Source: a virus
Virus record (IMG/VR): IMGVR_UViG_3300020421_002402
Location: 1-64,000 of that record
DNA length: 64,000 bases
Strand: one strand, 5' to 3'
The translations under genes were made by a program, and so were the position numbers. Shown here in pieces: positions 16,883 to 46,801 of the stretch. The notes beneath the pieces are model-generated. The model ran no database searches. It worked only from the letters and a program-made list of their open reading frames with translations, and had not been told where the DNA came from. Every line of letters starts with the position of its first letter. Position 1 is the stretch's first letter.

Positions 16883-19189
16883 ATGCAAGTACAGAAAAGA
16901 GATGGGCGACTAGAAGATATTAACATCGATAAATTACACAAAGTCGTCATGTATGCCTGTGAAGACATAACTGGAGTAAGTGCTTCACAAGTTGAAATAA
17001 ATTCACAAATTCAATTCTACGATAAAATCAGTTCAGAAGATATTCAAGAAACAATTATTAAAAGTGCGGCTGACCTTATCAGTGAAGAAACACCAAACTA
17101 TCAATATGTAGCAGGACGTCTAATCAATTATCATTTGCGTAAAATGGTATACGGAACATTCGAACCACCTTGCTTATGTGATATTGTACAAGACAATATA
17201 GATGCAGGATTTTATGATTCTGAATTTACAGACTTGTTTACTAAAGATGAAATTAACGAATTACAAAGTTTTATAGACCATAGCAGAGATGAATATTTAA
17301 CTTATGCGGCTATGGAACAATTCCGTGGAAAGTACCTAGTACAAAATAGAGCAACAGGTGAAATATTTGAAACACCACAAGTTGCATACATGATGATTGC
17401 CGCAACATTGTTTGCAAAATATCCTGCTGACAAAAGAATGAAATACATTAAAGACTACTATGATGCAATTAGTAAGTTTTTAATTAGTTTGCCTACACCT
17501 GTAATGGCAGGTGTGAGAACACCACAAAGACAATTTAGCAGTTGTGTATTAATTGAAACAGATGATAGTTTAGATAGTATCAATGCAACAAGTAGCAGTA
17601 TAGTAAAATATGTGAGCCAAAAAGCAGGTATTGGAATTGGAGCAGGCAGAATAAGAGCAATTGGTTCTAAGATTAGGAGTGGAGACGCAACTCACACAGG
17701 AGTTATTCCCTTCTATAAATTATTCCAGTCTGCTGTAAAAAGTTGTTCACAAGGTGGTGTTAGAGGCGGAGCGGCTACACTATACTATCCAATTTGGCAC
17801 TTAGAAATTGAAGATATGTTAGTGCTTAAAAATAACAAAGGAACAGAAGACAATAGAGTACGTCATATGGACTATGGTGTACAGTTTAACAAATTAATGT
17901 ATGAAAGATTATTAGCAGGTGAAAACATCACATTATTCTCCCCACATGATGTTCCTGAAGTTTATGATGCTTTCTTTTCTGACCAGGATAAGTTTAAAGA
18001 AGTTTACGAAGCGGCAGAAAGAAAAACCAGCATTAGGAAAAAATCAATACCAGCAGTAGAACTTTTCAGTAACTTTGTTCAAGAAAGAAAAGACACTGGT
18101 AGAATTTATTTAATGAATGTTGACCATGCAAACACACATGGTTCTTTTATTGAGGACGTTGCCCCAATTAAACAAAGTAATTTATGTTGTGAAATTGACT
18201 TACCAACTAAACCTTTAACAAATATAGAAGATCCTAATGGTGAAATAAGTCTATGTACTTTGAGTGCAGTCAATTGGGGTGCCATTAAAAGTTTAGAGCA
18301 AATGGAAAAAGTATGCGACTTGGCTGTTAGAGCATTAGATGAATTATTAGATTATCAAGAATATCCTATTGAAGCGGCAAGACGTAGTACAATGAATAGA
18401 CGCCCATTAGGAATTGGTATTATTAATTTTGCATATTGGATGGCAAAAAATGATAGCACATATCAAGAACCAAACTTAGATATGGTAGACACTTGGACTG
18501 AAGCATGGAGTTATTACTTAATTAAAGCAAGTGCCGATTTGGCAGTAGAGAAAGGTGCATGTCCTAAGTCCAATGAAACTAAATACAGTTTGGGTATTAC
18601 TCCTAATCAAACATACAAAAAAGATGTTGACGAATTAGTGAAACATCAAGAACGTGCAGATTGGGAAAGTTTAAGAAAACAATTAAAAGAAACAGGTATT
18701 AGAAATAGTACACTAATGGCATTGATGCCTGCTGAAACATCAGCACAGATTAGTAACAGTACAAATGGTATTGAACCGCCAAGAAGTTATGTTAGTATTA
18801 AGCAAAGCAAACATGGTGTGTTAAAGCAAGTAGTACCTGGCTTCCCAAGATTAAAAAACAAGTATGATTTACTTTGGGACCAAAAGTCACCAGAGGGTTA
18901 TTTAAAGATTATGGCAATCCTACAAAAGTACATTGACCAAGGTATTTCGGTAAATACGTCATACAATCCAGAACACTTTGAAGATGAGAAAGTGCCTATG
19001 AGTATGTTGTTACAACACCTAGTAATGTTTTATAAATATGGTGGTAAACAATTATACTATAATAACACTCACGATGGACAAGGTGAGATTGATATAAACA
19101 AAGAAGAAACTGCTCAGGTGCAGTTTATAGAATCAAGTAATGTTTCTCCATTACTTGAAGATGATGATTGCGAGAGTTGTAAAATTTAA
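16883..19189 (+). CDS. nrdA: Ribonucleotide reductase class Ia alpha subunit
   Basis: ATP cone, QFSSCVLI, SNLCCEI, C-terminal CESCKI. Confidence 0.97.
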   Translation: MQVQKRDGRLEDINIDKLHKVVMYACEDITGVSASQVEINSQIQFYDKISSEDIQETIIKSAADLISEETPNYQYVAGRLINYHLRKMVYGTFEPPCLCDIVQDNIDAGFYDSEFTDLFTKDEINELQSFIDHSRDEYLTYAAMEQFRGKYLVQNRATGEIFETPQVAYMMIAATLFAKYPADKRMKYIKDYYDAISKFLISLPTPVMAGVRTPQRQFSSCVLIETDDSLDSINATSSSIVKYVSQKAGIGIGAGRIRAIGSKIRSGDATHTGVIPFYKLFQSAVKSCSQGGVRGGAATLYYPIWHLEIEDMLVLKNNKGTEDNRVRHMDYGVQFNKLMYERLLAGENITLFSPHDVPEVYDAFFSDQDKFKEVYEAAERKTSIRKKSIPAVELFSNFVQERKDTGRIYLMNVDHANTHGSFIEDVAPIKQSNLCCEIDLPTKPLTNIEDPNGEISLCTLSAVNWGAIKSLEQMEKVCDLAVRALDELLDYQEYPIEAARRSTMNRRPLGIGIINFAYWMAKNDSTYQEPNLDMVDTWTEAWSYYLIKASADLAVEKGACPKSNETKYSLGITPNQTYKKDVDELVKHQERADWESLRKQLKETGIRNSTLMALMPAETSAQISNSTNGIEPPRSYVSIKQSKHGVLKQVVPGFPRLKNKYDLLWDQKSPEGYLKIMAILQKYIDQGISVNTSYNPEHFEDEKVPMSMLLQHLVMFYKYGGKQLYYNNTHDGQGEIDINKEETAQVQFIESSNVSPLLEDDDCESCKI

Positions 19190-20286
19190 TGTCAGTATTT
19201 AATGCAAAAAATAAAAAACATCACACTAAAGCAAAGATGTTTTTGGATCCTAACGGTGGAGTTAATGTCCAACGATTTGATGTGGTTAAATACAAACAGT
19301 TTGAAAAATTAACTGAAAAACAACTGGGTTTCTTTTGGAGACCAGAAGAAGTTGATATCCTTAAAGATGCAAAAGACTTTAAAGAACTTACAGACTTTGA
19401 ACAACATATTTTTACAAGCAATTTAAAAAGACAAATTATATTAGATAGTGTACAAGGTCGTTCACCAAATTTAGCATTGTTGCCAGTAGTAAGTGTTCCT
19501 GAATTAGAAACATGGATTGAAACTTGGGCATTCTCAGAAACAATTCACAGTAGAAGTTACACGCATATTATTAGAAATGTGTACCCAGATCCTAGTAAAG
19601 TATTTGACAATATGTTAAACATTAAAGAAATTACAGATTGTTCAGATGCTATTACAGAAAACTACGACAAACTAATAGAACAAAATCAAGCAAGAGAACG
19701 TGGCTTACAAAGTTATGATGAATATGAACATAAGAAAGCATTGTATAAATGTATAATGAGTGTGAACATATTAGAAGGTGTACGTTTTTATGTTTCGTTT
19801 GCATGTAGTTGGGCATTTGCTGAACTTAAGAAAATGGAAGGTAATGCTAAAATTATCAAACTTATTGCTAGAGATGAAAATGTACACTTAGCAAGTACAC
19901 AACAAATGCTTAAAATACTTCCTCAAGATGATAAAGACTATGTAAAAATTGCAAAAGAGTTAAAAGAAGAATGTACGCAAATGTTTTTAGATGCAGTTGA
20001 ACAAGAAAAACAATGGGCAGACTATTTGTTCAAAGATGGCAGTATTATAGGACTAAATGCTGACTTACTTAAACAGTACATTGAATTTATTGCAGGCAAA
20101 AGAATGAGAGCAGTTCAATTAGAAACTCCTTTTAACACAGGCACAAATCCTTTACCTTGGACCCAAGCATGGATTACAGGTGGTAGTGTACAAGTTGCTC
20201 CTCAAGAAACTGAAATAAGTAGTTATGTTATTGGCGGTACAAAACAAGACGTTGATAACGATACTTTTAAAGGTTTTTCTCTTTAA
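19189..20286 (+). CDS. nrdB: Ribonucleotide reductase class Ia beta subunit
   Basis: FFWRPEEV, ETIHSRSY, DENVH, APQETEISSY. Confidence 0.97.
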   Translation: MSVFNAKNKKHHTKAKMFLDPNGGVNVQRFDVVKYKQFEKLTEKQLGFFWRPEEVDILKDAKDFKELTDFEQHIFTSNLKRQIILDSVQGRSPNLALLPVVSVPELETWIETWAFSETIHSRSYTHIIRNVYPDPSKVFDNMLNIKEITDCSDAITENYDKLIEQNQARERGLQSYDEYEHKKALYKCIMSVNILEGVRFYVSFACSWAFAELKKMEGNAKIIKLIARDENVHLASTQQMLKILPQDDKDYVKIAKELKEECTQMFLDAVEQEKQWADYLFKDGSIIGLNADLLKQYIEFIAGKRMRAVQLETPFNTGTNPLPWTQAWITGGSVQVAPQETEISSYVIGGTKQDVDNDTFKGFSL

Positions 20287-20302: not shown

Positions 20303-20310
20303 CATAAATA
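20303..20310 (+). promoter_or_regulatory. Late promoter CATAAATA in front of the riboswitch leader
   Basis: Box 6 nt upstream of aptamer 1. Confidence 0.6.
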
Positions 20311-20316
20311 ATTATA

Positions 20317-20375
20317 CGTTCATTCACTCTAAATGTAGCAGTGAACGGAAGTAGTCAATAGTGACGAAGGAACGC
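20317..20375 (+). ncRNA. Glutamine riboswitch aptamer 1 (glnA motif)
   Basis: CGUUCA-[UUCAC/GUGAA]-CGGAAGUA-[GUCA/UGAC]-GAAGGAACGC matches glnA three-way junction/E-loop layout. Confidence 0.85.
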
Positions 20376-20380
20376 ATCTT

Positions 20381-20428
20381 CGTTCATCCTTAACAGGACG
20401 GAAGTAGGTGATAATACCGAAGGAACGC
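20381..20428 (+). ncRNA. Glutamine riboswitch aptamer 2 (glnA motif)
   Basis: CGUUCA-[UCCU/AGGA]-CGGAAGUA-[GGU/ACC]-GAAGGAACGC; core identical to aptamer 1, stems differ but pair. Confidence 0.85.
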
Positions 20429-20449
20429 ATCTCATAATAGGAGATGTAA

Positions 20450-20611
20450 ATGACTAAGTATCAAGAAGCAGTACAAATCAAACGTGCTGTAAAAAAACAA
20501 CTTAAGAAAGAGCAAGGCAAAACAACTGGGTATATTTACAGAGGAGTTCGCTACGATAAAAGTAATAGTGACCTTCCTAATTATATAACAGACAATCCTT
20601 ACTATCCTTAA
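20450..20611 (+). CDS. Unannotated 53-aa DUF4278-like peptide downstream of the riboswitch
   Basis: MTKYQEAVQIKRAVKKQLKKEQGKTTGYIYRGVRYDKSNSDLPNYITDNPYYP; AGGAG SD; YRGVxY motif. Confidence 0.75.
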   Translation: MTKYQEAVQIKRAVKKQLKKEQGKTTGYIYRGVRYDKSNSDLPNYITDNPYYP

Positions 20612-20618
20612 AGTAACT

Positions 20619-20648
20619 GAAAAGGGTCGGTAACGGCCCTTTTCTTTT
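20619..20648 (+). terminator. Intrinsic terminator
   Basis: GAAAAGGGTCG-GTAA-CGGCCCTTTTC-TTTT. Confidence 0.8.
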
Positions 20649-20661
20649 GATAAATAAATGT

Positions 20662-32282: not shown

Positions 32283-32358
32283 GCTCGGATAGCTCAGTTG
32301 GTAGAGCAGGGGTTTTGTAAACCTCAGGTCGGAGGTTCGAATCCTCTTCCGAGCTCCA
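32283..32358 (+). tRNA. tRNA-Thr(UGU)
   Basis: Full cloverleaf, acceptor GCTCGGA/TCCGAGC, TTCGAAT, encoded CCA. Confidence 0.95.
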
Positions 32359-32363
32359 CTCAT

Positions 32364-32438
<75 letters not shown>

Positions 32439-45748: not shown

Positions 45749-46801
45749 ATGTTTGATCCTAATGTAAAAAGAATTGGCTTTTGTTGTAAGTATATGGACC
45801 CTGACCAGAGTCAGAAACCTAAACTTCTCAAGGAGATACAGCAAAATTACACAGAACGCATGACAACTATTACTTGGCTTGATAGACAAGAAAAGTCTGT
45901 AGCAGAAGAACGTATGCTTGAACTTGTTACTCATAACATGCAGGCGGCATACAATCTTGTAGAATTGGTAAGCAAACTTCCAGCAGAACGTAGAATGGTT
46001 AGGCTAGGCAGTAATCAATTGCCAGGTGCTACACAAGAAGATTGGAAATACATGTGGCAAGACCCTACTAATATTAAAATGCTAGAAGAAGGCTTTGCTA
46101 AAGTGGGGAAACTTGCTAGAGATAAAGATGTTCGTATTAGTTTTCATCCTGGGCAGTTTTGTGTACTTGCTAGTGATAAGCCTGATGTAGTAGAACGTAG
46201 TTTAGACGAGTTCGAGTATCATGCTAACATGGCACGTTGGATGGGGTATGGTAAAGAGTTCATGGACATGAAACTCAATATACACATATCTGGACGTCAA
46301 GGAGCACAAGGTATTATAAATATACTACCTAAATTATCACCTGAGGCTCGTAACACTATTGCAATCGAAAATGATGAGATGTGTCACGGACTCGATGAAT
46401 CATTAAAATTGGAGAAACATTTGGCATTGGTGTTGGACATACATCACCATTGGATTAGAGATGAAGAATATATACAAGCAAATGATGACCGTGTTAAAAG
46501 GGTCATTGATAGTTGGCGCGGTGTTAGGCCTACTTTACATTACAGTTACAGCAGAAATGAATGGCTGGATCAATCAAGCAGAATTGATGAAGGAAACAGG
46601 CATGATTCCTTACATTCCATATCTGACCTTTTAGAGTCTGGTGCTAAGAAACAAAAACTTAGAGCACATTCAGATTTTTACCCTAATGAAAAAGTTAATG
46701 AATGGGCATTGAGTTTCTTTGATAATTTTGACATTCAATGCGAAGCAAAGGCTAAGAATTTAGCCAGTGAAGAATTATACCTGCAATATATAAACACATA
46801 A
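45749..46801 (+). CDS. uvsE: UV damage endonuclease
   Basis: RIGFCC, RISFHPGQF, NIHISG, IENDE, LDIHHH, HYS, HSD, EAKAK. Confidence 0.9.
   Translation: MFDPNVKRIGFCCKYMDPDQSQKPKLLKEIQQNYTERMTTITWLDRQEKSVAEERMLELVTHNMQAAYNLVELVSKLPAERRMVRLGSNQLPGATQEDWKYMWQDPTNIKMLEEGFAKVGKLARDKDVRISFHPGQFCVLASDKPDVVERSLDEFEYHANMARWMGYGKEFMDMKLNIHISGRQGAQGIINILPKLSPEARNTIAIENDEMCHGLDESLKLEKHLALVLDIHHHWIRDEEYIQANDDRVKRVIDSWRGVRPTLHYSYSRNEWLDQSSRIDEGNRHDSLHSISDLLESGAKKQKLRAHSDFYPNEKVNEWALSFFDNFDIQCEAKAKNLASEELYLQYINT

Follow-up and report, generated by a model that had tools for sequence, protein, structure and literature searches.

Tandem glutamine aptamers ahead of a new 53-amino-acid peptide in a late-type gene cassette of an uncultured phage

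What does a phage control with two glutamine-sensing RNAs placed one behind the other? The question is raised by a window of 64,000 nucleotides (nt), positions 1 to 64,000 of the IMG/VR virus record IMGVR_UViG_3300020421_002402, in which the interval 20303-20648, lying between nrdB (19189-20286) and a PAAR-domain gene (Pfam E-value 3e-10), holds on its + strand a promoter-like box, two aptamers of the Rfam glnA class (RF01739), a small open reading frame (ORF) and a terminator. The source record is a fragment of 110,193 nt, 31% complete according to CheckV, which corresponds to a genome of roughly 350 kb. An earlier note on this DNA had described the interval as self-contained, with a promoter box, aptamers, a small ORF and a terminator of its own, and all of these parts are present at the positions it gave. 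It had also proposed that the unit be checked with the Rfam glnA and Downstream-peptide models, with a HMMER search for DUF4278 and for synteny in related contigs. On the evidence presented here we read the locus, with a probability of roughly 0.72, as a late-gene cassette of a large uncultured phage in which a tandem glutamine ON switch controls a 53-amino-acid (aa) phage peptide.

The identity of the aptamers was addressed by scanning the whole window with cmscan against Rfam 15, in which the gathering score of RF01739 is 35 bits. Four matches at gathering score were obtained, namely two tRNAs and two adjacent full-length copies of RF01739 on the + strand; aptamer 1 (20315-20378) scored 54.8 bits and aptamer 2 (20379-20431) 62.1 bits, each aligned over model positions 1-53 of 53. 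Judged by these alignments the two are ordinary high-scoring members of RF01739, and the view that the phage carries a genuine tandem glnA-type riboswitch was thus borne out. The Downstream-peptide motif (RF01704), the second model proposed, gave no match at gathering score in the window. According to the cmscan alignments the cores CGUUCA, CGGAAGUA and GAAGGAACGC are common to both aptamers, and their stems differ yet pair. In aptamer 1 the P1 stem is formed by 20317-20321 and 20370-20374, with the C next to it at 20375, P2 is a long hairpin, and P3 consists of GUCA (20354-20357) and UGAC (20362-20365); in aptamer 2, P1 is formed by 20381-20385 and 20423-20427 and the adjoining C is 20428. 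The cores of this three-stem junction are invariant in 28 relatives, and compensatory changes are found in P2 and P3 of aptamer 2. The long P2 hairpin (CUCUAAAUGUAG), which belongs to aptamer 1 in the window (20315-20431), sits in aptamer 2 of the related locus L123 (3863-3982).

The ORF behind the aptamers (20450-20611, stop codon included) encodes the peptide MTKYQ...YIYRGVRY...LPNYITDNPYYP. A word-indexed search of 5.8 billion clusters identified 28 homologues of 48-66 aa, and a profile search of 1.84 billion representatives identified 29 clusters at 50% identity, all of which, one artefact aside, are stand-alone peptides of 38-69 aa. The exception, a 1246-aa match (P0040), was rejected as a relative, being an artefact of repeats. 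The N-terminally extended homologues (MVPKERIFVKGDD...; P0009, P0022, P0026; L136-L148) were likewise rejected as real proteins; the MVPKERIFVKGDD extension is gene-caller read-through, i.e., the translated 3' half of aptamer 2 together with the hairpin over the Shine-Dalgarno (SD) sequence. Among 35 distinct coding sequences the median pairwise ratio of non-synonymous to synonymous substitution rates (dN/dS) was 0.40, with 97% of pairs below 1, and the invariant residues use several synonymous codons, including all four CCN codons at the Pro of DNP. This pattern of substitution argues strongly that the ORF is coding; the earlier note had picked it out although it was missing from the ORF track, and with this dN/dS, 29 clusters and consistent linkage to aptamers it proves to be real.

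Within the alignment the residues M1, T2, K3, Y4, R12, A13, P43, Y45, I46, T47, D48, N49, P50 and Y52 are invariant and the middle is variable, the invariant parts of the family being MTKY..RA and P.YITDNP.Y. An AlphaFold2 model built from the family alignment has a confident helix over residues 3-23 and a weak hairpin over YIYRGVRY, and places the most conserved motif in a low-confidence tail modelled without regular structure. Such a disordered but conserved tail would fit a short linear motif that folds upon its partner. The family is new and essentially restricted to phages, and combines a basic N-terminal helix with the invariant tail P.YITDNP.Y. Searches with blastn and tblastn of the region and the peptide gave no match in 50,697 phage records; a peptide 94% identical to that of the window is present on a 322-kb contig. 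A sister set of peptides (L186, L216, L256, and L276) has tandem aptamers and an N-terminus of the type MTKYQ..AVKRDL, and ends in ..EERFLP rather than YITDNPFYP, which suggests a modular peptide with exchangeable tails. The N-terminus MTKYQE (within 20450-20480) also resembles the T4 capsid targeting sequence, which reads MKTYQEFIAE, and other riboswitch-linked peptides start with MT(L/M)YQ. The peptide has no conserved cleavage-type (L/I)xE site, and the likeness may be due to chance or to a constraint at the RNA level.

The linkage of this peptide family to the aptamers was addressed in viral contigs. A search of IMG/VR with a back-translated pattern found 39 peptide loci, and over two viral scans 40 distinct family loci were obtained. 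The Rfam scan took in 34 of the 39 pattern loci, three loci of the first scan (covering re-found records) and L043; L144 (unscanned) and L151 (cut at the contig end) stand outside the linkage count. One or two RF01739 aptamers lay directly upstream of the peptide gene in all 38 scanned loci with upstream room, 33 of them tandem and five single. The architecture is conserved beyond the aptamers. The family cassettes open with an NTAAATA box, often preceded by a terminator; one or two aptamers come next, then 18-27 nt of linker and the ORF, and a strong hairpin closes the unit. The box was found 13-32 nt ahead of aptamer 1 in 39/39 distinct family cassettes and the strong hairpin right 3' of the stop codon in the same 39, in 33 cases with a T run as well. 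In the window the linker between aptamer 2 and the ORF is 21 nt long and contains no terminator, and the intrinsic terminator behind the ORF (20619-20648) has a stem of 11 pairs (20619-20644) closed by a GUAA loop and followed by UUUU. A small conserved hairpin (GUAACGCAAGUUAC or similar) occurs between box and aptamer 1 in L136-L148, L071, L082, and L115, where the mRNA would thus start with it; the window cassette is without it. The nearest relative with context, L123, encodes a peptide 70% identical to that of the window and keeps the order nrdA, nrdB, cassette, PAAR, with 80% aa identity to the window in nrdA and 74% in nrdB. At loci other than L123 the neighbours are unrelated (73 flanking ORFs fall into 32 clusters), so that the cassette behaves as an independent late-gene unit.

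The box CATAAATA (20303-20310) had been taken for a late-type promoter. A T4-type late promoter would have a TATAAATA-like box a few nt ahead of the transcript start, in use throughout the genome; boxes like the one here are strongly placed before ORF starts, and one precedes each of the family cassettes. As a motif, ATAAATA does not exceed its expected frequency in the window (29 found, 33 expected); it is its placement which is far from random. An ORF start lies at most 45 nt downstream on the same strand for 15 of the 29 boxes, compared to 1.3 for random positions and a maximum of 6 in 1000 trials of random placement. These 15 boxes are found 5-6 or 26-33 nt before the ORF starts, ten of them at exactly 5-6 nt. 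Six nt separate the end of the cassette box from the point where pairing starts in aptamer 1, so that the transcript would begin at the aptamer, with a predicted start at about 20316-20317, the 5' edge of aptamer 1. We infer from this placement that CATAAATA acts as a late-type promoter, and both its activity and its class are to be understood in this sense. The PAAR gene carries a box of its own, GATAAATA (20649-20656), which ends 5 nt before its ATG (20662); this spacing, like that of nine other window genes, fits a leaderless late transcript. Elsewhere in the window, the two tRNA genes detected by cmscan are adjacent to each other (32283-32435; 70.5 and 60.7 bits).

Between the aptamers and the start codon a single structure recurs. 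The SD sequence AGGAG (20439-20443) is partly buried, in the minimum free energy (MFE) fold of the window, by a hairpin (20427-20447) in which GCAUCUC (20427-20433) pairs with GAGAUGU (20441-20447) around the loop AUAAUAG; the 3' tail of aptamer 2 supplies the 5' arm, and the GAG of AGGAG lies within the 3' arm. RNAfold predicted a corresponding hairpin in 23/23 distinct family linkers, the 5' arm always starting at the G/C which directly follows P1 in the last aptamer, and the 3' arm lying over GGAG. The arms vary in a compensatory manner (CAUCUC/GAGAUG, CAUCUUU/GGAGAUG, CAAUCU/AGAUUG, CAUUUUCC/GGAGAAUG, CAUCU/GGAUG, and in L043 GCGCU/GGCGU), and the median probability of the SD being unpaired is 0.05 over 32 cassettes. 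Conservation of this predicted hairpin can therefore be taken as established at the sequence level. In the window it begins at G20427/C20428 and so shares nucleotides with the 3' tail of the aptamer. In the gifB leader of Synechocystis the C next to P1 forms a long-range G-C pair in the bound state, as known from the crystal structure cited there, and in the free state the same C and the nucleotides that follow pair with the ribosome binding site, a pairing which glutamine melts (PMC6212724). A translational ON switch is the best-supported mechanism because the SD hairpin is conserved, because the logic is that of gifB and because no terminator precedes the ORF; the direction of switching we infer by analogy with gifB. 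The SD-burying hairpin had been pointed out from the window alone, and with its compensatory changes and its match to the gifB model this proposal has gained weight. A second hairpin, ACGAAGG (20364-20370) with UCUUCGU (20377-20383), had been proposed to break P1 of both aptamers at once. It does exist in the window, where it is part of the MFE fold, but it rests on one linker variant (GCAUCUUCG), six other linkers being found among the other family members; what is universal is only the complementarity that P1 strands of adjacent aptamers cannot avoid. The inter-aptamer hairpin was thus rejected as a selected feature since it is not conserved in the relatives.

The presence of two aptamers raises the possibility of a second lock, this time on the start codon. 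In the MFE fold of 20316-20465 (z = -2.4) UAGUCA (20352-20357) and UGACUA (20451-20456) form a long-range helix. The former runs from the last bases of the GGAAGUA core into the 5' strand of the P3 stem in aptamer 1; the latter takes in the last two bases of the AUG, the whole Thr codon ACU and the A behind it. The same helix appears in the RNAalifold consensus of 28 relatives, and its pair probability is 0.99 in the window with a median of 0.94 over 32 distinct tandem cassettes. P3 of aptamer 1 reads GUC(A/G)..GAC in 33/33 tandem cassettes and P3 of aptamer 2 always GGN..NCC; within aptamer 1, P2 and the P3 loop diverge, and the long-P2 module is found in either aptamer. Aptamer modules thus seem to be exchanged between the two positions while P3 remains position-specific. 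The second codon, for Thr, is ACU in 36/38 cassettes; the other conserved Thr of the family is encoded by ACA in 26, ACU in 4 and ACG in 3. Tandem cassettes which encode other peptides provide similar cases. In L107 and L102/L202 the P3 of aptamer 1 is again of the GUC type and the start region complements it, and in L079 aptamer 1 has a P3 of AGAU..AUCU, which the start region, AUGGAUAUGA, matches over 8 pairs. These predictions make pairing of the P3 strand of aptamer 1 with the start-codon region a tentative proposal, to which we give somewhat less than even odds.

Put together, the proposed mechanism would run as follows. A T4-type late promoter box would start an mRNA with aptamer 1 at its 5' end. 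When glutamine is absent, the 3' tail of aptamer 2, from the C next to P1 onwards, would pair with the SD region and no translation would take place; when glutamine is bound, this C would be drawn into the aptamer fold, the hairpin would melt and initiation would be allowed. Aptamer 1 would add the second lock, its P3 5' strand UAGUCA being paired with UGACUA unless glutamine stabilises P3. With two locks both aptamers would have to be occupied, which would result in a steep response. As for the product, the peptide would most likely bind a host protein or RNA in the nitrogen-replete infected cell.

Several points weigh against this scheme, most of them against its second lock. Both strands of the long-range helix are invariant, so that there is no covariation inside the family; the UGAC of the start region is already set by the invariant Met-Thr, and the protein sequence leaves little of UGACUA free to vary. 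ACU is also retained in L043, L140, L143, and L156, four of the five single-aptamer cassettes, none of which has a P3 that could pair with it. When pairings were swapped between families as a test, the cognate one was only slightly favoured over the non-cognate one (-6.2 versus -5.0 kcal/mol), and in three families the start-codon pairing was not found by this test. It should also be noted that nearest-neighbour folds leave the tertiary fold of the aptamers out of account. With regard to the product, Pfam, PHROGs, PDB sequences and the ESM Atlas give no function for the peptide. A lock on the AUG as a general rule for tandem cassettes was rejected on the basis of the weak swap test and of the three families without the pairing.

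The earlier suggestion of a non-cyanobacterial host was also followed up. No psbA was found in the record of the window or in five other peptide-bearing records, all six of which are fragments; four of the others are 21-27% complete at 77-97 kb, which corresponds to genomes of about 360 kb, and one further peptide-bearing record is a T4-like phage with Gp23. The best matches of nrdA are to phages of Gammaproteobacteria (57-61%), and PHROG annotation of 20 large ORFs gave few matches and no host clue. When 185,579 species genomes were searched, the peptide was found in one, a 1.3-Mb metagenome-assembled genome (MAG) labelled uncultured Gammaproteobacteria. Its peptide gene (L162, 2-294) sits right at the edge of a bacterial contig of 69.7 kb; it is separated from a tRNA-Ile gene by 84 nt and is followed by pssA and ilvC/H/I. 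The contig breaks inside the cassette, perhaps on account of genome-repeated aptamers. In the order to which this MAG belongs RF01739 scored above the cut-off in 57 of 121 genomes (0.7-1.8 Mb), often in tandem. These aptamers (L163-L174, L178, L179; G010-G126) are located upstream of GSI-type or GSII-like glutamine synthetase genes and of a porin-amt pair, and have a different expression platform (GUUAAAC..GUUUAAC). RF01739 has been reported in SAR86 (PMC12379486; 2025), an order of bacteria that would also fit the genome sizes seen here. The marine "glnA" association of the original motif paper may trace to this gammaproteobacterial order and not to cyanobacteria. Since no psbA was found, nrdA matches phages of Gammaproteobacteria, the peptide occurs in a gammaproteobacterial MAG and RF01739 is present in its order, a non-cyanobacterial host is plausible; the order itself is a lead only.

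Glutamine aptamers in phages are not limited to this family. Matches to a strict aptamer pattern came from at least 120 contigs of IMG/VR and those to a tandem pattern from at least 119. Among the matches listed nearly every aptamer had a small ATG ORF of 16-65 aa behind it, the median distance being 26 nt. The ORF families among the matches listed include YRG/DUF4278-like peptides, the MTKYQ..YITDNPFYP family and the related MTKYQ..EERFLP peptides, basic M..W..YC peptides, a 64-aa GGTSGY, a 50-aa ..DPRLQKI and a 32-aa QLxLIK family, and others. A looser pattern found at least 79 distinct tandem cassettes; among those listed, 38 encode MTKYQ peptides and 41 other peptides, and for this reason the idea that tandem aptamers are specific to the MTKYQ family was rejected. 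One of the published cases falls into place with these observations. The riboswitch of phage Melnitz was reported to control the transfer-messenger RNA (tmRNA) (PMC9004378). In the Melnitz genome (MZ577097) RF01739 matches 46398-46446, where the annotated tmRNA feature ends, and an unannotated 32-aa ORF (MTLYQQWCYLKAQKEY...) with the SD GGGGAGAG lies 23 nt downstream of the aptamer. The GenBank record has a minus-strand hypothetical ORF there and a tmRNA feature extended over the aptamer, and the 32-aa peptide (MTLYQQWCY...) belongs to a family also seen in viral contigs. The region of aptamer and ORF (about 46398-46568) corresponds to L176 1501-1670, where the ORF MTLYQQWCYLKAQKEYRRRQKILMYFRIRLKG has its own SD. 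Going by this arrangement the published assignment to the tmRNA is probably mistaken.

The Melnitz reading is also what speaks for an alternative at our own locus, namely that the RNA itself acts (for instance as a sponge or small RNA) or controls the downstream PAAR gene, and that the small ORF is not the regulated product (PMC9004378). This we regard as very improbable, considering that the ORF is under purifying selection, that a strong terminator separates it from the PAAR gene, that the latter has its own box 5 nt before its ATG, that many of the contexts of the cassette lack a PAAR gene, and that the Melnitz aptamer itself has the unannotated 32-aa ORF 23 nt downstream. The small ORF being the likely target, the aptamers could still work in the opposite sense, as an OFF switch, or their target could be transcription or mRNA stability instead of initiation. 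In the streamlined gammaproteobacterial order these aptamers, tandem ones included, stand before the genes for glutamine synthetase and amt. Repression by glutamine would be physiologically sensible there, and the expression platform is a different one. The phage cassettes, on the other hand, have no terminator-like element between aptamer and ORF, and nothing but the SD hairpin is conserved as a structure downstream of the aptamers, some of its nucleotides being part of the bound aptamer fold as well; an OFF switch or an action other than on initiation therefore appears improbable here.

A further alternative keeps the ON switch and gives the product a definite role, as a DUF4278 or IF17-like peptide which inactivates the host glutamine synthetase (GS) at high glutamine. 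It has the aptamer class and the ON logic in common with cyanobacterial gifB/IF17 (PMC6212724). The core motif of DUF4278, Y.YRGV.Y, is present in the window peptide and in about half of the family, and by our estimate the chance of such a hexapeptide in 53 aa is of the order of 1e-5. True DUF4278 peptides do occur behind phage glutamine aptamers, and the window peptide is basic, as is IF7. The assignment of the YRGVRY peptide to the DUF4278 type did not survive the Pfam search: the window peptide gave no match, to PF14105 (DUF4278) or any other family, even at E<=10, and only 1 of 29 family members reached E=0.08 with PF14105, whereas five phage YRG-repeat peptides from behind glutamine aptamers, used as positive controls, matched at 3e-9 to 1e-3, three of them above the gathering score. 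YRGVRY is missing in about half of the family, where the position reads LFPRGVS, FFPRMVT, QFPHVEK or SFPTIEK or shows nothing similar, and it is the termini which are invariant. As the controls match PF14105 and the window peptide does not, YIYRGVRY is best regarded as a single DUF4278-like unit in a different scaffold, and the peptide was rejected as a DUF4278 protein on account of the absent match and of the unconserved YRGxxY. Moreover, the C-terminal part of IF17 is crucial for the interaction with GS and missing from short DUF4278 proteins (PMC6212724), so that the YRG motif alone does not predict inhibition of GS. A role as GS inactivator is thus unlikely.

We return to the tandem ON switch in front of a phage peptide of its own family, and to how far it may be generalised. 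It is conceivable that phage glutamine riboswitches form a widespread and largely unannotated regulon of at least 6-8 micro-protein families (16-65 aa), that the tandem arrangement is a two-lock AND gate in which aptamer 2 frees the SD and P3 of aptamer 1 frees the AUG, and that MTKYQ..YITDNPFYP is a host-directed effector in a nitrogen-replete non-cyanobacterial host, perhaps of the streamlined gammaproteobacterial order; taken as a whole this is a doubtful proposition, which we would expect to fail rather than to hold. If it is true that the peptides act on host nitrogen metabolism or translation, they would show how marine phages sense the glutamine pool of the host late in infection and respond to it. 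Control of phage genes by riboswitches is sparsely documented, and the published case of a non-cyanobacterial phage, Melnitz, appears to have missed the regulated gene.

Comparison with known systems shows which parts of the locus have precedents. Tandem glnA RNAs have been published (PMC2864571), as have glutamine riboswitches of cyanophages and of OM43 and SAR11 phages (PMC9004378, PMC9602691), and since both the tandem and the phage-borne forms are already in print the novelty assigned to the locus by the earlier note was overrated. New here are the peptide family, several unannotated small-ORF families behind phage glutamine aptamers, and possibly the second lock. The closest parallel is gifB/IF17 (Klahn et al., 2018; PMC6212724), in which RF01739 likewise lies in the 5' untranslated region of a small-protein gene and an ON mechanism has been proposed; the window differs from it in having two aptamers, a phage late-type promoter, a product which is neither DUF4278 nor IF17, a possible extra lock on the AUG and a host which is probably not a cyanobacterium. 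The glnA RNAs of marine metagenomes (Weinberg et al., 2010; PMC2864571) are tandem and marine like ours, and their tandem arrangement was tied to more digital control; they are linked to GS, amt, PII, and GOGAT, whereas the phage cassettes drive small peptides. Phage-borne RF01739 is also known from Melnitz (OM43), Mosig (SAR11), pelagimyophage MAGs and T4-like cyanophages (PMC9004378, PMC9602691, PMC9964418), with the difference that Melnitz has a single aptamer, read in the paper as controlling ssrA, and the window a tandem. The type-2 glutamine riboswitch RF01704 with its short DUF4278 ORFs resembles the window in combining a glutamine leader with an easily missed short ORF, but aptamer architecture and peptide family are different. 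In the tandem glycine riboswitch, finally, two aptamers give a steeper response, and as in the window two aptamers for one ligand serve one expression platform; the model for the window would differ in that each aptamer sequesters its own part of the initiation region instead of the two docking with each other. Such a two-lock design, if real, would be a new route to a steep response from tandem aptamers.

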